Of a stretch of 64,000 bases of DNA, positions 138-54,311 are shown piece by piece (positions within the stretch are counted from its first letter, which is position 1; every line of letters begins with the position of its first letter). Both the position numbers and the translations under genes were made by a program. The DNA is from an uncultured Candidatus Saccharibacteria bacterium (GTDB lineage Bacteria > Patescibacteriota > Minisyncoccia > Phycocordibacterales > Phycocordibacteraceae). Below the pieces are notes generated by a model that worked only from the letters and a program-made list of their open reading frames with translations, did not search any database and was not told the origin of the DNA. The stretch spans positions 1,128 through 65,127 of the forward strand of contig CAZWLE010000001.1 in NCBI GenBank assembly GCA_964634305.1. Direction: 5' to 3'.

Positions 138-221
138 TGGTGCCGGGAGAGAGACTCGAACTCTCAAGCCTTACGGCAGCGGGTTTTGAATCCACCGTGT
201 ATACCATTCCACCATCCCGGC
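138..221 (-). tRNA. tRNA-Leu(CAA), type II with long variable arm
   Basis: The reverse complement reads GCCGGGATGGTGGAATGGTATACACGGTGGATTCAAAACCCGCTGCCGTAAGGCTTGAGAGTTCGAGTCTCTCTCCCGGCACCA. It has a 7-bp acceptor stem, T-arm GAGAG/TTCGAGT/CTCTC, anticodon loop UUCAAAA (CAA), a long variable arm and an encoded CCA. It overlaps track ORF 20..379, which is therefore spurious. Confidence 0.8.
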
Positions 222-284
222 TTAATCGGCACCTTACCATTTTCCACCCCCTTTTTCATCTGACCTGGTGCTATACTTTCGTCC

Positions 285-1232
285 ATGAGTGCGGGCGAAC
301 CGACAAAATACGATTCGGTATTCTGGATAGATACCGACAAAATAGCTCCGAACCCGTATCAGCCACGGCGGGAATTTGACGAGGATGCGCTCAAGGCGCT
401 CGCTGATTCCATTCGTCAGTACGGTATTTTGCAGCCGCTTGTTGTGACGCGTGCGGCAGACGTTGAGCGTGCGGACGGCGGCATGGAAAGTCGCTATGAG
501 CTCATCGCGGGTGAGCGACGTCTTCGTGCCTCAAAGCTTGTTGGTCTAAAGACGGTGCCTGCGGTTATCCGTCAGGGTGAGTCTGATGCGATGAAGCTTG
601 AGCTTGCGATTATCGAGAACCTCATGCGTGAGGATTTGAATGCGATAGACCGTGCAAAGGCATTCAAACAACTTGCGGATGAATTCGGTCTCTCCCACAC
701 CGAGATTGGTCTTAAGGTGGGGCGAAGTCGTGAAATGGTTACCAACTCCATTCGTCTTCTTCAGCTTCCTGAATACATCCAGCAGGCAGTGGTGAACAAA
801 GAAATCACTGAAGGTCATGGACGTGCACTCCTCATGCTCATTGACCGTCCTCAAGAGCAGGAGACGCTCTTCAAGGAAATTCTTTTGAAGAAGACGTCGG
901 TCCGTATGGTAGAGCAGCTCGTACGGCGTATTGCTACCGATAAGATTCGTAAGCACGACAAGACGCCAGAGATGATGGAGATTGAGAAGTCACTCACTGA
1001 GCAGCTCGGAACCCGTGTCGTTATCGAGAATCGTCCAAACGGTGGTCGTGTCCTTATTGAATTCTTCTCACCTGAAGATTTGACGAATATACTTGCTGCG
1101 CTTGCAGCAGAAACGAAAGCAAAGGCAGAGGCAGAAACGATTGCTGCGGTAGAAGAAGCCGTACCTGAAGGAGTGGTGGAAGCAGAGAAGACCGACGACG
1201 AGTTGTATTCCGTGAAGAACTTCGTCGTGTAG
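285..1232 (+). CDS. parB: ParB chromosome-partitioning protein (ParB/Spo0J nuclease-like N-domain plus HTH)
   Basis: N-terminal ParB-box motifs (IAPNPYQPRREFDEDALKALADSIRQYGILQPLVV, GERRLRAS) and a central HTH. Length 315 aa. Confidence 0.85.
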   Translation: MSAGEPTKYDSVFWIDTDKIAPNPYQPRREFDEDALKALADSIRQYGILQPLVVTRAADVERADGGMESRYELIAGERRLRASKLVGLKTVPAVIRQGESDAMKLELAIIENLMREDLNAIDRAKAFKQLADEFGLSHTEIGLKVGRSREMVTNSIRLLQLPEYIQQAVVNKEITEGHGRALLMLIDRPQEQETLFKEILLKKTSVRMVEQLVRRIATDKIRKHDKTPEMMEIEKSLTEQLGTRVVIENRPNGGRVLIEFFSPEDLTNILAALAAETKAKAEAETIAAVEEAVPEGVVEAEKTDDELYSVKNFVV

Positions 1233-2879
1233 CTACGCGTCAGCGCCCCATTTCTTTTTACGTGCGCGCTCGCGTTTACGCACGAGACGACTGTCTGGTT
1301 TAGCAGCGGCACCTGGTCCGCGTTCGGTTACATCAAGGGCGGTGCGTATGTGTTTACGCGCCATAGAGGTCTTCGCCATCTCAAGCCATTTAGTGGTCGG
1401 CTTTGCAGAGTCACGACGCAAAATTTCCACGATATCGCCGTTACGCAGGACGGTATCAAAGGCAACCAGTTTGTTGTTTACCTTCGCTCCATTCATGTGA
1501 TTACCGAGGTCGCTGTGTATTGCGTAGGCAAAGTCGATAGGAGTGGAGTGTACTGGTAGGTCGATGACGTCGCCTTTTGGGGTAAACACAAACACGCGAT
1601 GTGAGAAGAAGTCTTCTTTGAGGCTGTCGACAAATTCAGATGATTCAGCGAGCGTCGTGTGTACCTCGGCAAGCTCAGAGAGCCAGCGTGGTGCCGTCTC
1701 TTCTTTAGTCTTCTTTCCGTTTTTGGTTGGTTGAGCTACCACCACCTCTCGCTTTTTGGAGAAGTTAAGAAGGGTAGGTACAAGGTCGCGTACCCACGTA
1801 AAAGAAAGGTTGGCGAAAGCACCTTTACCTGCCGTCTTTCCTAGCTGCTTATAAGACATGTGGGACGCGATACCAAACTGCGCCGCTCGATGCATTTCAT
1901 CGGTACGTACCTGTATCTCCACAATGCCCGCTTCCTGTGTAAGAACGGTCGTATGGAGCGATTGATAGCCGTTTGGCTTTGGAAACGCAATGTAGTCTTT
2001 AAATTGCCCTGGAAGGGGACGGAATCGAGCGTGGATGACGCCAAGTGCCGCATAGCAATCATCTATCGAGCGAACAATCACACGCAGCGCAGCAATATCG
2101 TGAATCTCGGTGATGTCATCACCCTTACGTTTTAGTTTCTGGTGGAGGCTCCAGAGTCCTTTCATGCGCACTTCAGTACGGAAATCACGAATCCCTCTAC
2201 GAGCGAATTCCCGTTGGATTTCTTTCTGCACGCGCATGAGTCCCGTTTCTGTCTCCTTACTTTTTAACTTCCGTACCTCGACGGCGTGAGCGTACGCATC
2301 GCCATCAACGATAGGGAAGGCAAGGTCTTCTAAGTTCTTTTTCATGCGCCCCATACCAAGACGGTCGGCAAGCGGCGCATAGATTTCAATCGTCTCAAGC
2401 GCGATGCGTCGCTGCTTTTCCTTTGGCACGTGCTCAATCGTGGTCATGTTGTGATACCGGTCGGCGAGCTTGATGATGAGTACGCGCACGTCAGCTGAGG
2501 TAGCAACGAGAAGGCGACGTAGAGATTCTGCATGGCGCTCCGCACCACGGTATTTGTGCTTTCCAAGTTTCGTTACACCGTCGACAAGAAAGAGTACCTC
2601 TGCACCAAACTGTTGCTTCACCGCATCTTCGCTCGCCTTTCCATCCTCAACGGTGTCATGGAGAAGTCCTGCAGCGATGGTCGCCGCATCCATACCCAGT
2701 TCAGCAAGGATTTTTGCGGTTGCGGACGGGTGAACGAAGTACGGCTCTCCGGAATATCGTTTGTCGTCCTTATGTGCATTCTCAGCAAATGTGTACGCTT
2801 TCTCGACGAGGGCTCGGTCCTCGTCAGTAGCGTTCTGCATCTCGGCGATTATCTCCTTCACCGGGGTCATTCTGCCCAT
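1233..2879 (-). CDS. rel: RelA/SpoT-family bifunctional (p)ppGpp synthetase/hydrolase (HD, synthetase and TGS domains)
   Basis: N-terminal HD-domain motifs (HDTVEDG), the central RelA/SpoT synthetase region and a TGS-like C-terminus. At 548 aa it is shorter than canonical Rel, apparently lacking an ACT domain. Confidence 0.8.
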   Translation of the reverse strand: MGRMTPVKEIIAEMQNATDEDRALVEKAYTFAENAHKDDKRYSGEPYFVHPSATAKILAELGMDAATIAAGLLHDTVEDGKASEDAVKQQFGAEVLFLVDGVTKLGKHKYRGAERHAESLRRLLVATSADVRVLIIKLADRYHNMTTIEHVPKEKQRRIALETIEIYAPLADRLGMGRMKKNLEDLAFPIVDGDAYAHAVEVRKLKSKETETGLMRVQKEIQREFARRGIRDFRTEVRMKGLWSLHQKLKRKGDDITEIHDIAALRVIVRSIDDCYAALGVIHARFRPLPGQFKDYIAFPKPNGYQSLHTTVLTQEAGIVEIQVRTDEMHRAAQFGIASHMSYKQLGKTAGKGAFANLSFTWVRDLVPTLLNFSKKREVVVAQPTKNGKKTKEETAPRWLSELAEVHTTLAESSEFVDSLKEDFFSHRVFVFTPKGDVIDLPVHSTPIDFAYAIHSDLGNHMNGAKVNNKLVAFDTVLRNGDIVEILRRDSAKPTTKWLEMAKTSMARKHIRTALDVTERGPGAAAKPDSRLVRKRERARKKKWGADA

Positions 2880-3170
2880 GGTAGCAGAATAGGGGCATTA
2901 ACGCTTGACGCAGGGTCTTCTGAAGAGAATACTGACCCGACTGTTCCTTCATTGAAACAGTGAGTGAGGTGAGCCATGTATCGTTTACGCTGCACAAAAT
3001 GCGGTAGGCATAATCGCAACCACCGAATCAGCTTTTGCGTTGGAGGGTGTAAAAGCGAAAACGGCCATATGGCGGCGATGGAGCCGCTTGAACCAGGCTT
3101 TTGGAAAATCCACCAGCTCGTCCCGTTCGAGCTCCTCCAATCTTCTCGCTAGCTGCATCACAGCCAGCAC

Positions 3171-3199
3171 GCAAAAGGCCGCTCCTTGTGGGCGGCCTT
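3171..3199 (-). terminator. Intrinsic terminator downstream of topA on the minus strand
   Basis: An 8-bp GC-rich stem (AAGGCCGC/GCGGCCTT) with a 9-nt loop, followed on the minus strand by a UUUU tract just after the topA stop. Confidence 0.5.
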
Positions 3200-3204
3200 C
3201 GACG

Positions 3205-5592
3205 TTAGACGAGATAACTTGCAGCTTCCTCAGGAGAAAGAGAATCCGCTTGCACGCTTTCCGGAAGGTAGATACGGCGCAGGCCTTTCTTAAGGAAGAG
3301 ACCCTGCTTTGACTTGTAGAGAACGAGTGCACGACCGGTCTTTGGGTGTTTCATTTCTTTCTCAATGGTCGCGCCTTTAGGAGGCAGTTTTGGCGTATCC
3401 ACGAGCACAACGGCGTCTTCAAGCGCGATAGTGTATGGGTCACCCTTTTTGATAGAACGGAATTCGCCGTTGTAGGCAACGTATGGACCAAAGCGACCCG
3501 TGTTAGCGACGATAGGGAATCCCGTCTTTGGATGCATGCCGAGCTCGCGAGGGAGCGAGAGATATTTAACAGCATCCTCAAGCGTGACGGATGCTGGGTT
3601 AACGCCGGGAGGAACACTTGCTCGCTTTCCGCTAAATGCAGGTTTCTTTGCTTTTTTCTTAGCTACCTTCTTCTTACCCTTAGTTGGTTCTGGTTCAGGA
3701 GCAGCCTCTTCAACCGGCGCATCGTCAGGCATTTCTACATACGGTCCAAAGCGTCCAGTGCGAATGAAAATCGCTTTACCTGTCTCAGGATGCATACCGA
3801 GTGGTTCATCACCCTTCAATTCGCTGCCGTCTTCCTGACGTGCACCATCGCAGTCTGGGTAGCGGGTACAGCTCATAAACACACCACCCCGACCAAGCTT
3901 GAATTCCATTTCACTTCCACATTTTGGACAAGGGAATTCCTTCGGTGCTTTTCCAAGGGCCGTTGCCTTTGGTAAATCACCCTTTGCATCAATAGCGGCA
4001 CGAAATGGGGTGTAGAACTCCTTCAACGTCTTTGCGTACTCACGCTCACCGCGTGATATTTCATCAAGCTCATCTTCCATCTCCGCAGTGAACGAATCAC
4101 TGATGTATTCCGCAAAATGCTCTTCAAGCCATCCAGATACCACCATGCCGGTAGCGGTTGGTTTAAGCGTACGACCATCTTTATCGACGTAGCCGCGGTC
4201 CTGAATGGTCTTCATGATGCTCGCGTAGGTAGACGGGCGTCCAATACCACGCTTCTCGAGTTCCTTGATAAGGCCTGCTTCGGTGTAGCGGTTAGGTGGT
4301 TCCGTTTGCTTCTCAAGCGCATCAATAGAGAGAAGGGTAAGTGCTGCGCCTGCTACGACTTTTGGAAGTTCTGTGTCCTCGCCGCGTGCGCGCGTATCAA
4401 GTGCCAACCAGCCAGGGAAGATAACGCGAGAACCATTTGCCGTGAATACAGGAATATCAGCATCAGCCGTGGCAGTGACCTTGGTCCGGAGTACCTTTGC
4501 ACTCGCCATTTGACTTGCGAGTGCACGGGTACGAATAAGCTCATAGAGCGCAATCTCATCAGCGGTATGGCCTGCTTTCGTTTTGCCTGCATCGGTAGGA
4601 CGCACTGCTTCGTGCGCTTCCTGTGCATTCTTCGACTTAGTCTTGTAGGCACGCGATTCGACATAGTCTTTACCAAACTCTTTTTCAACGACGCTACACA
4701 TCTTGGCGACGGCTTCCTTTGCAAGGTTAACGGAGTCAGTACGCATGTAGGTAATGTGTCCTGCTTCGTAGAGTTTCTGAGCTGCGCGCATAGTGCGGGA
4801 AGGGGCAAATCCAAGACGAGTCGATGCTACCTGCTGCATCGTTGAGGTGGTAAACGGCGGGCGTGGTGCACGCTCTTCTGCTTTCTCAGTGACGTCACCG
4901 ACAGTCCAGGTCGCCTTACGTCCCTCTTCTACGATACGGTGTGCCTCGGTTGCCTCTTTTGGCTCTTCTACACACGTGGCATCAAATTCTTCAGTGCCTG
5001 CCTTAAAACGAGCTGAGAGCACGTGATATGTCTCAGGAATAAACGCGAGTATTTCACGCTCACGTTCAGCAAGAATGCGGAGCGCTGGGGACTGCACGCG
5101 TCCTGCAGAAAGGCCGTAGCGAACTTTCTTCCAGATAAGACCGGAGAGGTCGTAGCCTACGAGACGGTCCAGTACGCGACGTGCCTCTTGTGCCTGGCGC
5201 AAATCCTCATCAATAGCGCGAGGATGTTTGAGCGCCTCTTGTACCGCATCTTTGGTAATTTCATGAAATACCACACGCTGTGGGTTCTTGAGCTTTACTG
5301 CCTCTTTAAGGTGCCATGCAATAGCTTCACCTTCGCGGTCGGGGTCGGTTGCAAGAAACACTTCCTCTGCCTTGTCGGCTGCCTTATGAATACGTTCGAT
5401 AACATCACGTTTTCCCGGGGAAATAACGTAGCGAGGGGTGAAGCCACCCTCGATATCAACGGCGTCTTTATTGGTCTTCGGAAGGTCACGGACATGACCA
5501 ACCGAAGCGAGTACCTCGTACTCGCTCCCTAGATAATGGCCAATCGTCCGCGCTTTTGCGGGAGATTCCACAATCAAAAGTTTCTTTGCCAT
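3205..5592 (-). CDS. topA: DNA topoisomerase I
   Basis: TOPRIM N-terminus (LLIVESPAKARTIGHYLG), a type IA catalytic core, C-terminal CxxC zinc ribbons and a lysine-rich tail. Length 795 aa. Confidence 0.9.
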   Translation of the reverse strand: MAKKLLIVESPAKARTIGHYLGSEYEVLASVGHVRDLPKTNKDAVDIEGGFTPRYVISPGKRDVIERIHKAADKAEEVFLATDPDREGEAIAWHLKEAVKLKNPQRVVFHEITKDAVQEALKHPRAIDEDLRQAQEARRVLDRLVGYDLSGLIWKKVRYGLSAGRVQSPALRILAEREREILAFIPETYHVLSARFKAGTEEFDATCVEEPKEATEAHRIVEEGRKATWTVGDVTEKAEERAPRPPFTTSTMQQVASTRLGFAPSRTMRAAQKLYEAGHITYMRTDSVNLAKEAVAKMCSVVEKEFGKDYVESRAYKTKSKNAQEAHEAVRPTDAGKTKAGHTADEIALYELIRTRALASQMASAKVLRTKVTATADADIPVFTANGSRVIFPGWLALDTRARGEDTELPKVVAGAALTLLSIDALEKQTEPPNRYTEAGLIKELEKRGIGRPSTYASIMKTIQDRGYVDKDGRTLKPTATGMVVSGWLEEHFAEYISDSFTAEMEDELDEISRGEREYAKTLKEFYTPFRAAIDAKGDLPKATALGKAPKEFPCPKCGSEMEFKLGRGGVFMSCTRYPDCDGARQEDGSELKGDEPLGMHPETGKAIFIRTGRFGPYVEMPDDAPVEEAAPEPEPTKGKKKVAKKKAKKPAFSGKRASVPPGVNPASVTLEDAVKYLSLPRELGMHPKTGFPIVANTGRFGPYVAYNGEFRSIKKGDPYTIALEDAVVLVDTPKLPPKGATIEKEMKHPKTGRALVLYKSKQGLFLKKGLRRIYLPESVQADSLSPEEAASYLV

Positions 5593-47040: not shown

Positions 47041-47117
47041 CGTACCACTTCGTTAGGTAGAGACTACGCAAGTCACGTGGTGCCAAGCCAGCGCCCCTCG
47101 GCTGATGGCAGGTGACA

Positions 47118-47150
47118 GGCGACGTCTTTCGGGACGTCGCCTTTTCCTTT
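47118..47150 (+). terminator. Strong intrinsic terminator after uvrC
   Basis: A perfect 9-bp stem GGCGACGTC-tttcgg-GACGTCGCC followed by TTTTCCTTT. It lies inside the track's longer ddl ORF, supporting the downstream ddl start. Confidence 0.6.
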
Positions 47151-47164
47151 GGTACACTAGTCGT

Positions 47165-48136
47165 ATGAGAGGCACGATTGTTGGGGTGTTGCGTGGTGGA
47201 CCGTCGAGGGAGCATGAGGTATCGCTTGCAACTGGTGCGGCGATACTCGCTCATCTGCCAAAAGAACACTTCACAGCGCGAGATATTTATATAGACAAGC
47301 AAGGGAACTGGCATCTCTTTGGAAAACCGGTTACGCCTGCAGAAGCGCTTCGTTCGCTTGATACGGTCATTGTCGGTTTGCATGGCGAATACGGAGAAGA
47401 TGGTGAGGTACAGAAAGTACTGGAGCGATTCGGTGTTCCGTACACGGGGTCTGCCTCGTTCCCTTCCTTTGTAGCGATGCATAAGCTGATGGCGAAGAAG
47501 AAAGCGGAGGAGCTTGGCGTACTCACGCCTCGCTATCGCTATGTCGACGAAGGAAGTGATATCGAGGCCATACTTGCTGACGTGACGCGTTCCTTTCATC
47601 AGCCGGTCGTCGTAAAACCTGTGCGTTGGGGCTCTTCGGTAGGCGTGTCTCTGTCGCACGGCTACGCACCCATGCATCGCGCCGTTACTGACCTGCTCGC
47701 ACAGGGCGCGGGAGGCGTCCTTATTGAGGAGTACATAAAAGGAACGGAAGCGACGCAGGGCGTGGTGGCGCATCTGCGGGGCGAAGAGCTGTATGCGCTT
47801 CCTTCGATTGAAATCATTCCGCCAGAGGAAGCAGGCTTCTTTGCGTCGCACGTAAAGTACTCAGGAGATACACGCGAAATCTGTCCTGCACGCTTCTCAA
47901 AGAAGGAGAATGAAGAGTTGGTGCGTGTCGCCCGCCTTATGCACGAAGGTCTTGGGCTCCGTCACTACTCTCGCAGTGATTTCATCATCTCTCCTAAGGG
48001 TATCTACTATCTTGAAACCAATGCGCTTCCAGGCATGACGAGTGAATCACTCCTTCCAAAATCCCTTGCTGCGGTAGGGGTCTCGTACCCTGATTTCCTT
48101 AGCCACATTGTTAACCTCTCACTCAATCGTCTATGA
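47165..48136 (+). CDS. ddl: D-alanine--D-alanine ligase
   Basis: ATP-grasp enzyme with N-terminal GGPSREHEVSL motif and C-terminal catalytic region (ETNALPGMT). The ATG at 47165 is preferred. The 285-aa antisense ORF 46994..47851 is rejected. Confidence 0.85.
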   Translation: MRGTIVGVLRGGPSREHEVSLATGAAILAHLPKEHFTARDIYIDKQGNWHLFGKPVTPAEALRSLDTVIVGLHGEYGEDGEVQKVLERFGVPYTGSASFPSFVAMHKLMAKKKAEELGVLTPRYRYVDEGSDIEAILADVTRSFHQPVVVKPVRWGSSVGVSLSHGYAPMHRAVTDLLAQGAGGVLIEEYIKGTEATQGVVAHLRGEELYALPSIEIIPPEEAGFFASHVKYSGDTREICPARFSKKENEELVRVARLMHEGLGLRHYSRSDFIISPKGIYYLETNALPGMTSESLLPKSLAAVGVSYPDFLSHIVNLSLNRL

Positions 48137-48465: not shown

Positions 48466-48821
48466 ATGGAGAGGGGCCCAGCTGTTCGCCAGGCCCCTGT
48501 TATGAGGTGATCGTCAGAGCGCCTTTGTGTTGACCGCGCATAAATGGCCGGAGCCACTGCGCTGTCGCGAATAGGCGGTGGTCACGTTTCTACACTATGA
48601 TTCCAGTAGCACTGCTTGCACAATGAAGTGCGCTCTTGCATGACGCGGTTTATCCCTAACGTGTCGAACTGGCGACGGATATTCCCGAAGGCCCAGAGCA
48701 GCAGCCCACCTTTCTCGTAGGTACGGATGCCCATATCATCCTTAGGTATAGGATGTCTCGGCCTGGCATCTTCTGTCAATTCCGTGTTATATTCTCCCTG
48801 TTCGCAGGGACAGCCCTAAAA

Positions 48822-48896
48822 GGGCCTTTAGCTCAGTTGGTAGAGCACCTCATTTGCAATGAGGGGGTCAGGAGTTCGAATCTCCTAAGGTCCACC
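48822..48896 (+). tRNA. tRNA-Ala(TGC)
   Basis: GGGCCTTTAGCTCAGTTGGTAGAGCACCTCATTTGCAATGAGGGGGTCAGGAGTTCGAATCTCCTAAGGTCCACC, with the G3:U70 identity pair, anticodon loop UUUGCAA and discriminator A. Coordinates cross-checked against the track ORF 48753 frame. Confidence 0.9.
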
Positions 48897-48903
48897 TTTC
48901 TTC

Positions 48904-48933
48904 AAAACAGGCACGAAAGTGCCTGTTTTGTTA
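48904..48933. terminator. Terminator hairpin after tRNA-Ala
   Basis: AAAACAGGCAC-gaaa-GTGCCTGTTTT (A-tract/T-tract symmetric). Confidence 0.5.
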
Positions 48934-48952
48934 TATCGCGCTTAACAGTTTG

Positions 48953-48964
48953 GAGGTTCTAATC
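48953..48964 (+). repeat. Direct repeat copy 1 (GAGGTTCTAATC), 53 nt upstream of the protease ATG
   Basis: Exact 12-mer shared with 49947..49958. A CTAGG motif also follows both copies. Confidence 0.6.
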
Positions 48965-49017: not shown

Positions 49018-49947
49018 ATGGAATCCCAATCCTTTTCTGAGCGCTATCAAAAGATAAAGCCTAGCGTGGTTGCAATTGTGGCAACCATCTCTAAGAACGG
49101 AGATTTTCCTGACATTCTCGGTACTGGGTTTATAGCCAGAGAAGATGGATTGATAATAACTAACAATCACGTTGTTCAGTTGATCAAAAAGCTCCCAAAG
49201 AGAAAGGATGCGCCAAAAGATGAGTGGCCTATTAAAGTACTCTACTTAGAAAATATTCCAGAAAAGGGAATGGCTTCCGCATATCTGGAAGTCGAAGGAG
49301 TCGGAACACTTGAACGCGAACAACCAATAGAGGGTCACTATTATGGACCAGATATTCCCGATGTAGGATTTATCTTTGTGAAAGTTCGAGGACTGCCGTT
49401 TCTTGAAGTTGAAGAGACAATCGAATTAAAAGAGGGCGATGAGATATACGTAGCCGGATTTCCAATGGGTACACGAACTTTACGCGCCCCGGGCTGGATA
49501 CATCAAATCAATCCCGTTTTGCAAAGAGGCATACTTAGTGCAATGCAACCGTTTCCATGCGATAAGCCCCATGGATACTTAGTAGACGTGGTTGCACAGG
49601 GTGGCTCTAGTGGTTCTCCAATTTTTAACCCTAAAACAGGGAAGGTTGCCGCCTTATTGTATGGAGGTATTCCAGAGAGGAACATAATTCCTTTGCCAGG
49701 AGGATCCGGACTACCCTATACCTACGGAACTTCACTCACGTTAGCTATACCAAGTCCGATCATGAGCGCTCTATTGAAAATGGATATGCATGACAGAAAA
49801 ACAAATCAAATTGATCAGCGTGACACAAGTACATATCCCACCCTTGCTGAATTCTTTGAGTCGCATGAAATGAAGATGCGTACACCAAGGTCGAGTGAAC
49901 CGGATGTCACGAAGGTGTCTGCCGCTGACCTGAATGAAGAGGTATAG
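49018..49947 (+). CDS. Trypsin-like (S1/chymotrypsin-fold) serine protease
   Basis: Catalytic His (ITNNHVV) and GGSSGSP serine motif. The codon usage is visibly AT-richer than the neighbours. Confidence 0.65.
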   Translation: MESQSFSERYQKIKPSVVAIVATISKNGDFPDILGTGFIAREDGLIITNNHVVQLIKKLPKRKDAPKDEWPIKVLYLENIPEKGMASAYLEVEGVGTLEREQPIEGHYYGPDIPDVGFIFVKVRGLPFLEVEETIELKEGDEIYVAGFPMGTRTLRAPGWIHQINPVLQRGILSAMQPFPCDKPHGYLVDVVAQGGSSGSPIFNPKTGKVAALLYGGIPERNIIPLPGGSGLPYTYGTSLTLAIPSPIMSALLKMDMHDRKTNQIDQRDTSTYPTLAEFFESHEMKMRTPRSSEPDVTKVSAADLNEEV

Positions 49948-50342: not shown

Positions 50343-50370
50343 GAAAGTTGTGTATGTTGTGTGGAATAGT

Positions 50371-50384
50371 TGTGTAGATACACA
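50371..50384 (+). promoter_or_regulatory. Inverted repeat TGTGTA-GA-TACACA (candidate LexA operator) within a cluster of TGTGTA hexamers (50348–50410)
   Basis: A near-perfect palindrome 24 nt upstream of the lexA-like ATG. Additional TGTGTA copies lie at about 50351, 50393 and overlapping the start. Confidence 0.4.
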
Positions 50385-50401
50385 CTTTCGAGTGCTAAGG
50401 T

Positions 50402-51100
50402 GTGTATATGTCTCACAACGACTCACTCACTGCTGCACAGGAAGAGACGCTCGCCCTTATCAAGCGTCACATCGCCCGCCATGGACAATCACCGACCATC
50501 TTGGAGCTTAAGCAAGCTCTTTCGCTCCGTTCTATCCGCTCTGTCACTCAGCGCCTCGAAGCGCTCGAGCGCAAAGGATTCATCTCTCGAGACCGGTTTC
50601 AGCACCGAAGCATTAAGGTCTTGGGAACCATCTCCACCCAGTACCTCGCGTCGGATTTCATAGCGGTTCCTGTCATCGCGTCTGCAGGCTGTGACGCGAT
50701 GGAGGTATTCGCTCAGGATGAATTTGGAGAGTTTATTGCGGTTGACCGGAAGCTTGTCGGTCGTGCGACCTCAATTGCTGGTATTAAAGCAGTAGGAGAT
50801 TCGATGATAGACGCTGGTATACATAATGGCGATTACGTTATCGTAGAAGTCACTGACCAGGTAGGAAATGGTGACCGTGTGGTAGCTATCATTGGGAATA
50901 TGGCAGTCATAAAGCGTTATGAGCAGGCACAGGGCGTTACGCTCCTGCACCCTGAGAACGCGAAGGAAAGCTACACACCTATTGTGGTTAGCGAGGAAGA
51001 TTCAAAGATATTTGGAAAAGTACTCTCCATAATTCCAGGAATAGAATGGCAGGATGACGTAAAAATCGAGTATTACGACGGCTACGGACCATCTCTCTAA
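50402..51100 (+). CDS. lexA: LexA-type repressor (wHTH plus S24 peptidase)
   Basis: N-terminal LexA DNA-binding domain (LTAAQEETLALIKRHIARHGQSPTILELKQALSLRSIRSVTQRLEALERKGFISR), Ala-Gly cleavage site (ASAGCDA), and Ser (VGDSM) and Lys (AVIKRY) catalytic dyad. The start is probably the ATG at 50408, preceded by an AAGGTG Shine-Dalgarno. Confidence 0.8.
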   Translation: MYMSHNDSLTAAQEETLALIKRHIARHGQSPTILELKQALSLRSIRSVTQRLEALERKGFISRDRFQHRSIKVLGTISTQYLASDFIAVPVIASAGCDAMEVFAQDEFGEFIAVDRKLVGRATSIAGIKAVGDSMIDAGIHNGDYVIVEVTDQVGNGDRVVAIIGNMAVIKRYEQAQGVTLLHPENAKESYTPIVVSEEDSKIFGKVLSIIPGIEWQDDVKIEYYDGYGPSL

Positions 51101-51147
51101 GCTCCTCAGCCTCTTTTAAGCAATATTTGGTATAAAGAAATGGTCGC

Positions 51148-52443
51148 ATGCAGGCCACCTCTTTTACATTCTGTTCATACAAGATAGATACAGAGCGTTC
51201 GATTGTGACGTTTTCGTACAGGGTAGAGTTTGCATTTGGTTTGCACTATACCTTCACTGATTCTCTTGTTTTCAAAGGAGTACCGTCTACTGCGTGGGCG
51301 AAGATACCAAAGGAAGTACTTGAACCAACGCTTCAAGCATTGCTTCTCATGCTCGGTATCAACTACTGGAGCTTTTTTCGTGCCAAAGATATTCGTATAG
51401 AAGGATTTACCCTTACCTGTGAACAAGCTCATTTCTGGGATACGCTCTACCTCAATGGACTAGCTGAGTTCTTTTATCTTGCAAAGATTGATTTCCGTAA
51501 CCTCATAGCGTTTCCCTATAGCGAAACGGTAGATGCGCCTCACCCCATAGAGTTCAAGCGACCATCACGCTCACTCCTGCTAAACGGCGCAGGCAAAGAC
51601 TCAATACTGTCAGCAGAAATGCTAAAAGAACAAGGACGGTCTTTTGACTTTTTTGCCTTTTCTCCTACACGCGCTCACCACCGAATTGCAAAGCTGGTAG
51701 GCGCAAAGTCTATAGAAGTCGAGCGCCGATACGACCCGTTGCTGAAATCGTTTGTGACGGGTGCTTACCCCTCAGTCTCTACCTTTACCTTCATTGCAGT
51801 ACTGCTTGCGGAACTCCTTGGGTACGACTCCATTGTTTTCTCTAATGAACGAAGTGCCGATATTGGAAATCTCGACTACCTGGGGCTACCGGTAAACCAC
51901 CAATGGTGCAAATCATCTGAGGCAGAGAAGCTCATAAACGACTACCTTCAGAGGTACATAACCCGCGATATCACCACGAGTTCCTTATTGCGACCGTACA
52001 GCGAGCTAGCGATAGTGCAGCGCTTCGTGCGCTATCCGCAGTACCACCACTATGTAACGAGCTGTAATACCTACTTTTGGCTTAGTCCTCTAGAGCAGTT
52101 CTTTGCACCCACCAATTACTGGTGTAAACGCTGCCCGAAATGTGTCTTTCTTTTCGCGTGCTTTGCAGCCTTTCTTCCAAAAAAGGAGGTTGTTTCTATC
52201 TTTAGGGGTAACGTGCACAGTAAAAAGCACCTTTTACCTCTATACAAAAGCATCCTGGGCATCGAAGGCTTTAAACCACTCGATTGTGTGGGGGAACCAG
52301 AAGAAATGATACTTGCTATGCACTATGCCTTAGAGCGAGGGGAGTATGGGGAAGAGCCTGCTATGAAGCTCTTTACTGAGCATTTCCCTAATAAGCATGA
52401 CTATGCCTCACTTGAGAAGAAAGTCTTCACGGACACGGTATAA
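51148..52443 (+). CDS. Hypothetical 431-aa protein with a PP-loop-like (SGGxDS-type: LNGAGKDS) motif and a C-terminal CxxCxxC cluster
   Basis: LLLNGAGKDSILSAEML resembles the adenine-nucleotide alpha-hydrolase / PAPS-reductase-like P-loop, and WCKRCPKC looks like a metal site. The rest is not recognisable. AT-richer than neighbours. Confidence 0.35.
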   Translation: MQATSFTFCSYKIDTERSIVTFSYRVEFAFGLHYTFTDSLVFKGVPSTAWAKIPKEVLEPTLQALLLMLGINYWSFFRAKDIRIEGFTLTCEQAHFWDTLYLNGLAEFFYLAKIDFRNLIAFPYSETVDAPHPIEFKRPSRSLLLNGAGKDSILSAEMLKEQGRSFDFFAFSPTRAHHRIAKLVGAKSIEVERRYDPLLKSFVTGAYPSVSTFTFIAVLLAELLGYDSIVFSNERSADIGNLDYLGLPVNHQWCKSSEAEKLINDYLQRYITRDITTSSLLRPYSELAIVQRFVRYPQYHHYVTSCNTYFWLSPLEQFFAPTNYWCKRCPKCVFLFACFAAFLPKKEVVSIFRGNVHSKKHLLPLYKSILGIEGFKPLDCVGEPEEMILAMHYALERGEYGEEPAMKLFTEHFPNKHDYASLEKKVFTDTV

Positions 52444-52462: not shown

Positions 52463-52705
52463 ATGGCTGACGAACAAGACCAAAAAGCACTAAAAGAGGC
52501 GCGGGAGCGATATACCAATGCGCGTGCGAGTATAGGTGACCTATACGGCAAACTTGATGAAATTATTAAAGAATATAAGAGAGATGAGAAGCTCTCCTCA
52601 CTAGAAGCGTTCAGGGAATTTCGTGCTTTTTGTCGTAAGCGACTTGTGGAGGATGAAGATACGCTACGCCTCGTATTGAACGGCTCTCTACGGAACGACA
52701 ACTAA
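52463..52705 (+). CDS. Hypothetical small helical protein (80 aa)
   Basis: ORF followed by a strong terminator. Charged, helical composition. Confidence 0.3.
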   Translation: MADEQDQKALKEARERYTNARASIGDLYGKLDEIIKEYKRDEKLSSLEAFREFRAFCRKRLVEDEDTLRLVLNGSLRNDN

Positions 52706-52710
52706 TAAAG

Positions 52711-52737
52711 AAAAAGCCCGCTCGCGCGGGCTTTTTC
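52711..52737. terminator. Bidirectional intrinsic terminator
   Basis: AAAAAGCCCGC-tcgc-GCGGGCTTTTT between convergent genes. Confidence 0.55.
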
Positions 52738-52756
52738 TTTAGTTAAGCCGTAGGGC

Positions 52757-53014
52757 TTAGGAGAGGTGAGCCGAGACGAGCTTAGTCATCTCGAACATGG
52801 TTACCTCACCCTTACCACCAAAGATAGCCTTAAGCTTGTCATCCGCGAGAATGTTGCGCTTGTTAGCAGGATTCTGGAGGTCATTCTTCTTGATGTACTC
52901 CCAAATCTTCTTGGTAACTTCGGAACGAGGCATAGGGCCCTTACCTACAACCGCTTCGAGGTCTGCGGAAAGGTTCATTGGCTTTGAAAGGGCCGGATTG
53001 AGTGCTCTTGGCAT
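52757..53014 (-). CDS. SWIB/MDM2-domain protein
   Basis: KKIWEYIKKNDLQNPANKRNILADDKLKAIFGGKGEVTMFEMTKLVSAHL matches the SWIB fold signature. Length 85 aa. Confidence 0.6.
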   Translation of the reverse strand: MPRALNPALSKPMNLSADLEAVVGKGPMPRSEVTKKIWEYIKKNDLQNPANKRNILADDKLKAIFGGKGEVTMFEMTKLVSAHLS

Positions 53015-53783: not shown

Positions 53784-54311
53784 ATGAAAACACCTCGCGC
53801 TATTAGCATTGTCGAACGCATAACGACCTGGACAGGGTCGGTGTCTTCCGTCATCGTTCACACCCTGCTATTTCTTGGTGCGTTCGCGATTGGCATCGTT
53901 GGTATTGCGGAGTGGGAGATTGTCCTCCTTGTGCTCACCACTATCGTCTCCCTTGAAGCTATCTATCTCTCCCTCTTTATCCAGATGTCCGTGAATCGCA
54001 ACACGGCTCAGCTTCGTGAGGTTGAGGAGGATATCGATGAAATTCAGGAAGACGTGGAAGAGATTAGCGAAGATCTTGATGAGATTCAGGAGGACGTCGA
54101 AGAAATCAGCGAGGACTTGGATGAAATTCAAGAAGATGTGGAAGAAATGTCTGAAGACATTGATGAACTCCAGGAAGACGTTGAGGAAATGACTGAGGAA
54201 GACGCAGCGGAAGACAAACGAGAAGAAGCGCAGGCAAAAACGCTCGAAGAACTTACGGGTGATATTCGTCGTATCCTCGACGACCTTGAAGCGCTAAAAA
54301 AGAAGAAGTAA
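53784..54311 (+). CDS. DUF1003-like 2-TM membrane protein with a C-terminal acidic tandem-repeat tail
   Basis: Two TM helices (LLFLGAFAIGIVGIAEW; VLLVLTTIVSLEAIYLSLFIQ), the conserved MSVNRNTAQL segment, then 4 copies of EDxDEIQEDVEEIS. Confidence 0.45.
   Translation: MKTPRAISIVERITTWTGSVSSVIVHTLLFLGAFAIGIVGIAEWEIVLLVLTTIVSLEAIYLSLFIQMSVNRNTAQLREVEEDIDEIQEDVEEISEDLDEIQEDVEEISEDLDEIQEDVEEMSEDIDELQEDVEEMTEEDAAEDKREEAQAKTLEELTGDIRRILDDLEALKKKK
54027..54194 (+). repeat. Four imperfect copies of a 42-bp tandem repeat inside the CDS, encoding 14-aa acidic units
   Basis: gaggatatcgatgaaattcaggaagacgtggaagagattagc and three variants, read directly from the sequence. Confidence 0.7.

Follow-up and report, generated by a model that had tools for sequence, protein, structure and literature searches.

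A divergent MurL-family protein with a predicted QueC-like PP-loop core, encoded next to lexA on a Candidatus Saccharibacteria contig

The window analysed here (64,000 nucleotides of contig CAZWLE010000001.1 from an uncultured Candidatus Saccharibacteria bacterium, positions 1,128 to 65,127) carries on its plus strand an open reading frame (ORF) at 51148..52443, which was confirmed to encode a protein of 431 aa. It begins 47 nt downstream of lexA, on the same strand (50402..51100, +); the 232-aa product of lexA scores 143 bits against TIGR00498 (cut-off 110.95) and contains the Pfam domains LexA_DNA_bind and Peptidase_S24. An earlier note, made from the sequence alone, had reported this arrangement correctly, along with the stretches LLLNGAGKDS and WCKRCPKC in the protein, and had considered the protein not placeable in any known family. 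By its match to NCBIfam NF041275 and the Pfam families PF26298 and PF26299, the ORF is a murL-like gene, which encodes a homologue of the MurL-family ATP-dependent epimerases and belongs to a tightly conserved Paceibacteria subclade.

Against NF041275 (MurL, UDP-N-acetyl-alpha-D-muramoyl-L-alanyl-L-glutamate epimerase), residues 4-421 of the protein aligned with profile positions 8-420 of 447 at E = 1.5e-74 and 251 bits, so that the homology with the published MurL extends over the full length of two proteins of similar size (431 aa vs a 447-position profile) having the same two Pfam domains. PF26298 (MurL_epimerase_C) and PF26299 (MurL_N) are precomputed for P0001, a protein with the identical sequence, and also for all 120 listed homologues, one close homologue already bearing the Joint Genome Institute (JGI) name for MurL epimerase. 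A Pfam scan of the window protein itself at E up to 1 gave no match, the MurL Pfam families being known for it only as precomputed annotations. The nearest homologues, with 60-72% identity, come from metagenome-assembled genomes (MAGs) of Parcubacteria/Paceibacteria, and an operon-encoded MurL of Taylorbacteria, which carries the canonical residues, is 40% identical. On exhaustive search (E up to 0.001), the MurL family was found to comprise at least 2,177 clusters at 50% identity. It is virtually certain that the window protein is a member of the MurL family and not an orphan; the gene adds a new and divergent representative to this known family, and family models that already exist account for most of the finding.

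First identified in Xanthomonas oryzae (XOO_1319), MurL catalyses step two of the alternative MurD2/MurL route, by which D-glutamate enters peptidoglycan without a glutamate racemase; the enzymes of Xanthomonas, Micromonospora and Salinispora use one ATP, yield AMP and act only in the L-to-D direction (PMC8788868, PMC5808125). The reviews, which date from 2018 and 2021, describe MurL as a protein without known conserved domains and of unclear mechanism, the working hypothesis being that the alpha-carboxylate is adenylated (PMC8788868, PMC5808125). Beyond these two papers, no literature was found on MurL or MurD2 in bacteria of the candidate phyla radiation (CPR), or on any MurL structure.

Two sequence motifs of the window protein deserve attention, namely a loop within residues 143-159, LLLNGAGKDSILSAEML, and a cysteine cluster that includes WCKRCPKC (residues 325-332). 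The former had been taken for a degenerate SGGxDS PP-loop, and as a loop it stands, being conserved and correctly placed in the topology of the model described below; the register, however, was off by one residue. SGGxDS corresponds to G147-A148-G149-K150-D151-S152 (51586..51603, +), where Ser is replaced by Gly and the first Gly by Ala, and N146 falls outside the motif. In an alignment of 137 diverse family representatives, the loop follows the consensus [G/S]-G-G-K-D-S with 94-100% conservation per position (G149 100%, K150 99%, D151 99%, S152 98%), and some members possess the fully canonical SGGKDS. The cysteine cluster, which is of the QueC/QatC kind, likewise held up, with the addition of a fourth predicted ligand, C306, that had been missed. 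The complete site is C306-x19-C326-x2-C329-x2-C332 (52063..52143, +) and its four cysteines are 97% conserved among the same representatives. Since the G147-A-G-K-D-S152 loop and all four cysteines are also unchanged in all 52 close homologues of the clade alignment, neither motif is a chance occurrence and both are under selection.

By analogy with known enzymes, the four cysteines are predicted to hold a structural zinc. The zinc motif of QueC (B. subtilis, PDB 3BL5; PF06508), C(x)8CxxCxxC, shows the same C(x)nCxxCxxC pattern, although its upstream Cys is 8 residues away, in comparison with 19 in the window protein; in the crystal structure of QatC (P. aeruginosa, PDB 9Y01/9Y02), zinc is bound by C334/C354/C357/C360, whose spacing is identical to that seen here. 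In a few MurL-family members, such as P0149 and P0155, all four cysteines are lost together with retention of the PP-loop and Cys380, an observation that fits a structural, rather than a catalytic, role of the metal. Cys380 itself (52285..52287, +), in the conserved motif K-P-[FL]-[DE]-C-V-G, is invariant across the 137 representatives (100%) and is a candidate catalytic residue. The PP-loop, the four-cysteine site, Cys380 and an NHQWxK motif are all common to the window protein and published MurL.

A model built by AlphaFold2 from the clade alignment was confident, with a mean predicted local distance difference test (pLDDT) score of 89.9 and a predicted template modelling (pTM) score of 0.89. 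It consists of an N-terminal domain of approximately residues 1-135, with an approximate boundary, corresponding to the Pfam MurL_N region and formed by three long beta-strands and helices (51148..51552, +); a QueC-like PP-loop core of approximately residues 140-343 (51565..52176, +), with beta-strands 142-145, 166-171, 188-194, 228-231 and 276-279; and a C-terminal helical extension of approximately residues 344-431 (52177..52440, +), which bears the C380 motif and has a layout comparable to that of the C-terminal extension of QatC. The GAGKDS segment, predicted to bind the pyrophosphate of ATP, occupies the place expected of a PP-loop, between strand 142-145 and helix 150-161. The core can be superposed on known PP-loop ATP pyrophosphatases of Rossmann-like alpha/beta/alpha architecture, the nearest being QueC, Cap9 and QatC, and the top Foldseek match of the model is QatC, a QueC-family protein of 427 aa (about 430 columns, TM ~0.45 and root-mean-square deviation (rmsd) ~10 A). 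As judged from the model, the MurL core is a PP-loop ATP pyrophosphatase (adenine-nucleotide alpha-hydrolase) domain nearest to QueC, and the QueC flavour perceived in the earlier note was borne out.

The relationship of MurL with QueC is apparent from structure comparison only, and sequence methods by themselves do not detect it. A Pfam scan at E up to 1 did not report the QueC profile PF06508, which had been suggested as a check; when the family alignment was compared with a single E. coli QueC sequence by hhalign, the probability was a non-significant 0.3%, and sequence and profile searches of the PDB copy used found no MurL homologue. MurL is not mentioned in a 2026 survey of the QueC family. 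The two differ, moreover, in that they have no detectable sequence-family membership in common, MurL has additional N- and C-terminal domains, and QueC uses ammonia as acceptor and a deazapurine as substrate, whereas for MurL these would be water, after epimerisation, and a UDP-muramyl dipeptide.

QueC-family enzymes activate carboxylates with ATP, and the QueC-like fold predicted for MurL therefore offers a structural rationale for its ATP-to-AMP chemistry.

The MurL family is linked to ligases of the MurD2 type. Among the 150 best MurL relatives, 18 are long proteins of 795-894 aa, and each of the 8 that were tested was found to be a fusion of an N-terminal MurL with a C-terminal MurD, the latter scoring over the TIGR01087 cut-off. 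The published L-Glu specificity residues, numbered by E. coli MurD, were used as the MurD2 signature. In the fused ligase domains, Lys348 is replaced by Arg (18/18), Ala414 by Pro (15/17) and Leu416 by Phe or Tyr (17/17); position 319 is not Lys in 18/18, and Asp182 is Glu in 9/18. Five solved D-Glu-specific MurDs have Lys319 and Ala414 in 5/5 and Lys348 in 4/5, the exception being Streptococcus with Arg, and Arg348 alone is not diagnostic since, as a review notes, Streptococcus MurD has it too. Relatives of the fused MurD domain are overwhelmingly MurDs from the CPR, some of them JGI-named L-glutamate ligase, and the signature was present in 117-118 of 118, a sample that is biased by having been chosen by similarity to the MurD2-type domain. 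Adjacent genes were found in three CPR lineages: Candidatus Taylorbacteria has the order alr-murL-murD with murL and murD overlapping, in Candidatus Uhrbacteria murL adjoins murD, and in one Patescibacteria genome a glmM-like gene, murL and the ligase follow in order. The ligases of all three loci carry the MurD2 signature.

Natural MurL-MurD2 fusions of 795-894 aa are common in metagenomes (P0147, P0157, P0162, P0259 and 14 other representatives), and at least two further proteins, P0282 and P0451 (664 and 513 aa), join Mur-ligase and MurL Pfam domains. Such fusions are not mentioned in PMC8788868 or PMC5808125.

Taken with its family, the window protein is probably a UDP-N-acetylmuramoyl-L-alanyl-L-glutamate epimerase, performing the same reaction as MurL. 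In the mechanism proposed, the QueC-like PP-loop domain would bind Mg-ATP, with G147-S152 gripping the beta- and gamma-phosphates, and the alpha-carboxylate of the terminal L-Glu would be adenylated with release of pyrophosphate, as QueC adenylates its carboxylate. The activated acyl group would render the C-alpha proton acidic, a conserved base would take this proton, which would then be given back on the other face; Cys380, and His251 or Lys255, are candidates for the base. The four cysteines would hold a structural zinc.

The organisms of the subclade make peptidoglycan precursors. A ddl gene for D-Ala-D-Ala ligase (47105..48136, +) lies 3 kb upstream in the window, its product aligning with E. 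coli DdlB at 35% identity (328 aa, E = 3e-36), and mraY-ftsW-murG occur in the related locus L049. Some enzyme must therefore supply D-Glu, for which MurL is the parsimonious candidate. MurI gave no match in the 64-kb window or in the 828 kb of subclade loci, which is a weak negative, and these loci likewise held no second murL, canonical copies included. The L049 cluster, on a 482-kb Paceibacteria contig, runs from 192 to 4664 as a D-Ala-D-Ala carboxypeptidase-like gene followed by mraY-ftsW-murG, has no murD between mraY and ftsW, and is separated by about 7 kb from the murL homologue.

Several observations weigh against a full functional equivalence with MurL. The score of 251 bits is far under the equivalog cut-off of NF041275, a Xanthomonadales-specific threshold of 700 bits that MurL-MurD fusions (286-503 bits) and the CPR MurLs linked in operons (346-363 bits) all likewise fail to reach; the window protein is about 100 bits below these CPR MurLs. 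At K75, N112, G148, H206 and S254, where conservation among other family members is 93-97%, the window subclade is different, and these five changes also set it apart from published MurL. K75, N112 and H206, conserved at 94-97%, are lost and variable; G148A, inside the PP-loop, is fixed, as is S254C at a position that is Ser in 93% of the family, and the resulting Cys254 (51907..51909, +) adjoins the invariant H251-Q252-W253-x-K255. The linkage to MurD2 seen elsewhere in the family is also missing, for no murD was found within 10 kb in any of the 62 subclade loci, and the window contains no Mur ligase except Ddl and no operon with murD2. A tblastn search of the 62 loci (828 kb), with Mur proteins from E. 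coli, five MurD domains taken from fusions and five MurDs of the CPR as queries, detected no MurD, the only hits being one MurE (L025), the window Ddl and the mraY-ftsW-murG of L049. MurD2-type queries brought up 240 CPR MurDs in two protein searches, none of which could be assigned to a genome with a subclade MurL. To these are to be added the limited diagnostic value of Arg348 and the biased choice of the CPR MurDs, noted above, and the origin of the window protein in CPR/Paceibacteria, outside the published distribution of MurL.

The same differences would suit a neofunctionalised MurL paralogue, in which the subclade keeps the adenylating QueC-like core and acts on another carboxylate substrate, such as a stem-peptide variant or precursor form, or employs a remodelled catalysis, for example through a Cys254/Cys380 pair. 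We regard this as unlikely, despite the lost and fixed positions, the uncoupling from murD in 62/62 loci where canonical-type CPR MurLs adjoin or are fused with MurD2, the deficit of about 100 bits relative to canonical CPR MurLs, and the existence of two intermediate forms, P0121 and P0270, of which P0270 is also without ligase linkage. All other family-invariant residues are retained in the window protein (GxGKDS with D151 and S152, E234, N250-H251-Q252, K255, S305-C306-N307, C326/C329/C332, K331, K376-P377, C380 and E386), the clade loci (828 kb) offer no second MurL of canonical type, and no neighbour points to an alternative substrate; gene order in the CPR is generally scrambled, so that a lost linkage is weak evidence. 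It is similarly unlikely, at about the same level, that the subclade, having lost K75/N112/H206, gained the invariant Cys254 and become uncoupled from MurD2, is a remodelled MurL which may use a Cys254/Cys380 pair or another precursor and which, in the window genome, may use the lexA promoter. Two further proposals fare much worse. The earlier note had suggested a candidate damage-inducible cargo, for example an enzyme that modifies nucleic acids or transfers sulfur, the types in question being QueC, DndC, PAPS reductase, TilS and LarE. In keeping with it are the PP-loop fold, structural matches of the model to QueC and to enzymes of tRNA thiolation, and the location on the lexA strand, 47 nt downstream without a clear intervening terminator, which would permit co-transcription in the window genome. 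The sequence family, however, is MurL and none of those proposed, and its members occur fused with MurD ligases or encoded beside them; no partner genes of nucleic-acid modification lie nearby, no operator-like palindrome precedes the gene, and none of the 61 related loci has LexA within 10 kb of the homologue. This reading now appears very improbable. A characterised housekeeping family in contexts other than lexA, the very outcome named beforehand in the earlier note as speaking against its proposal, is what was found.

Hardly more credible is an anti-phage enzyme resembling QatC or Cap9, which would conjugate a deazaguanine carboxylate to a protein N-terminus. QatC and Cap9 (PDB 9NTO) belong to the QueC family, act in the qatABCD and type IV CBASS (cyclic-oligonucleotide-based antiphage signalling system) defences and modify protein N-termini, and it is QatC that gave the best Foldseek match, at full length, with the identical cysteine spacing and a similar three-part layout. 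At a TM of only ~0.45 and an rmsd of ~10 A, this full-length similarity is but loose, and the N-terminal topologies are apparently unlike, the extension of QatC being a parallel four-stranded sheet and that of the window model three long strands in an apparently antiparallel meander. The strong match to the MurL profile and the housekeeping-like, single-copy conservation across Parcubacteria also argue against it. A role in defence was rejected, as PADLOC gave no match at E up to 1 and neither qatA, qatB, qatD nor CBASS genes, nor other defence partner genes, lie nearby. The MurL reaction remains our preferred assignment for the window protein.

The adjacency to lexA is an accident of the window genome and not a property of the MurL family. 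The upstream lexA is seen in this genome only, and the suggestion that homologues might always adjoin lexA was not supported by any of the 61 related loci, in which no neighbour recurred in more than 8 on clustering that included ORFs down to 40 aa. The sole operator-like palindrome lies upstream of lexA itself: TGTGTAGATACACA (50371..50384), a perfect 14-nt palindrome located 18 nt before the lexA start within a TGTGT-rich stretch (50348-50400), has no second exact copy in the window, and from its sequence and position it is a candidate LexA operator motif for the CPR lineage of the window. A scan of the window found no such palindrome before the murL-like gene. The 47-nt spacer between lexA and murL (51101..51147, +) has no convincing terminator. 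Within it, about 12 nt ahead of the ATG, lies TGGTATAAA (51128-51136), which resembles an extended -10 element when read by eye and was not called by a consensus scan. Were it in use, murL would be transcribed from a promoter of its own into an almost leaderless mRNA; co-transcription with lexA and an own murL promoter are both possible in this genome. Downstream, after 19 nt, follows an 80-aa ORF (52463..52705, +) with no family match, which was not found near any murL homologue, and right after it a hairpin terminator with a 16-bp stem (52706..52741), common to the convergent gene of a SWIB-domain protein (52757-53014, minus strand). This hairpin probably ends a lexA-murL-orf80 transcription unit. 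The neighbours in the window are LexA, the 80-aa ORF, SWIB and NUDIX.

Some other features of the region were also recorded. A tRNA-Ala(TGC) gene lies at 48822-48896, and a 69-aa ORF at 48753-48962 is a mere shadow of it. The gene at 49018-49947 encodes a trypsin-like serine protease (Pfam Trypsin_2), which matched the PADLOC candidate-defence profiles PDC-M35A (E = 1.5e-8) and PDC-S45 (E = 2.7e-7) and, less strongly, RT-Protease_XI (E = 5e-5). At 53784-54311 lies the gene of a predicted membrane protein of 175 aa, whose C-terminal half consists of tandem acidic repeats (EDxDEIQEDVEE[I/M]SEDLDEIQ...). In two related loci from a Paceibacterota MAG (L068, 13904-17768; L069, 11660-15512), YcaO, nitroreductase and PQQ-like beta-propeller genes adjoin one another at a distance of 2.5-6 kb from a murL of the intermediate type; this group could be an azoline-type cluster for a ribosomally synthesised and post-translationally modified peptide in a CPR genome.

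For the MurL family, a QueC-like adenylating domain together with a Cys4 site of the QueC/QatC type, as predicted here, would provide a structural basis for the acyl-adenylate mechanism that has been proposed, with D151, S152, K150, C380, H251 and K255 as the residues of mechanistic interest. The window subclade represents a divergent MurL variant that is uncoupled from the MurD2 locus; if, in the window genome, murL is transcribed from the lexA promoter, a cell-wall step would be tied to DNA damage. The MurD2/MurL route has been regarded as confined to relatively few genera. Judging from the sequences gathered here, the distribution of MurL/MurD2 appears much wider than published and seems to include many CPR lineages, several of which have fusions or adjacent genes. 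A wider distribution would lessen the appeal of the route as a narrow-spectrum drug target, and this alternative source of D-Glu may be common across a very large radiation of uncultured bacteria.
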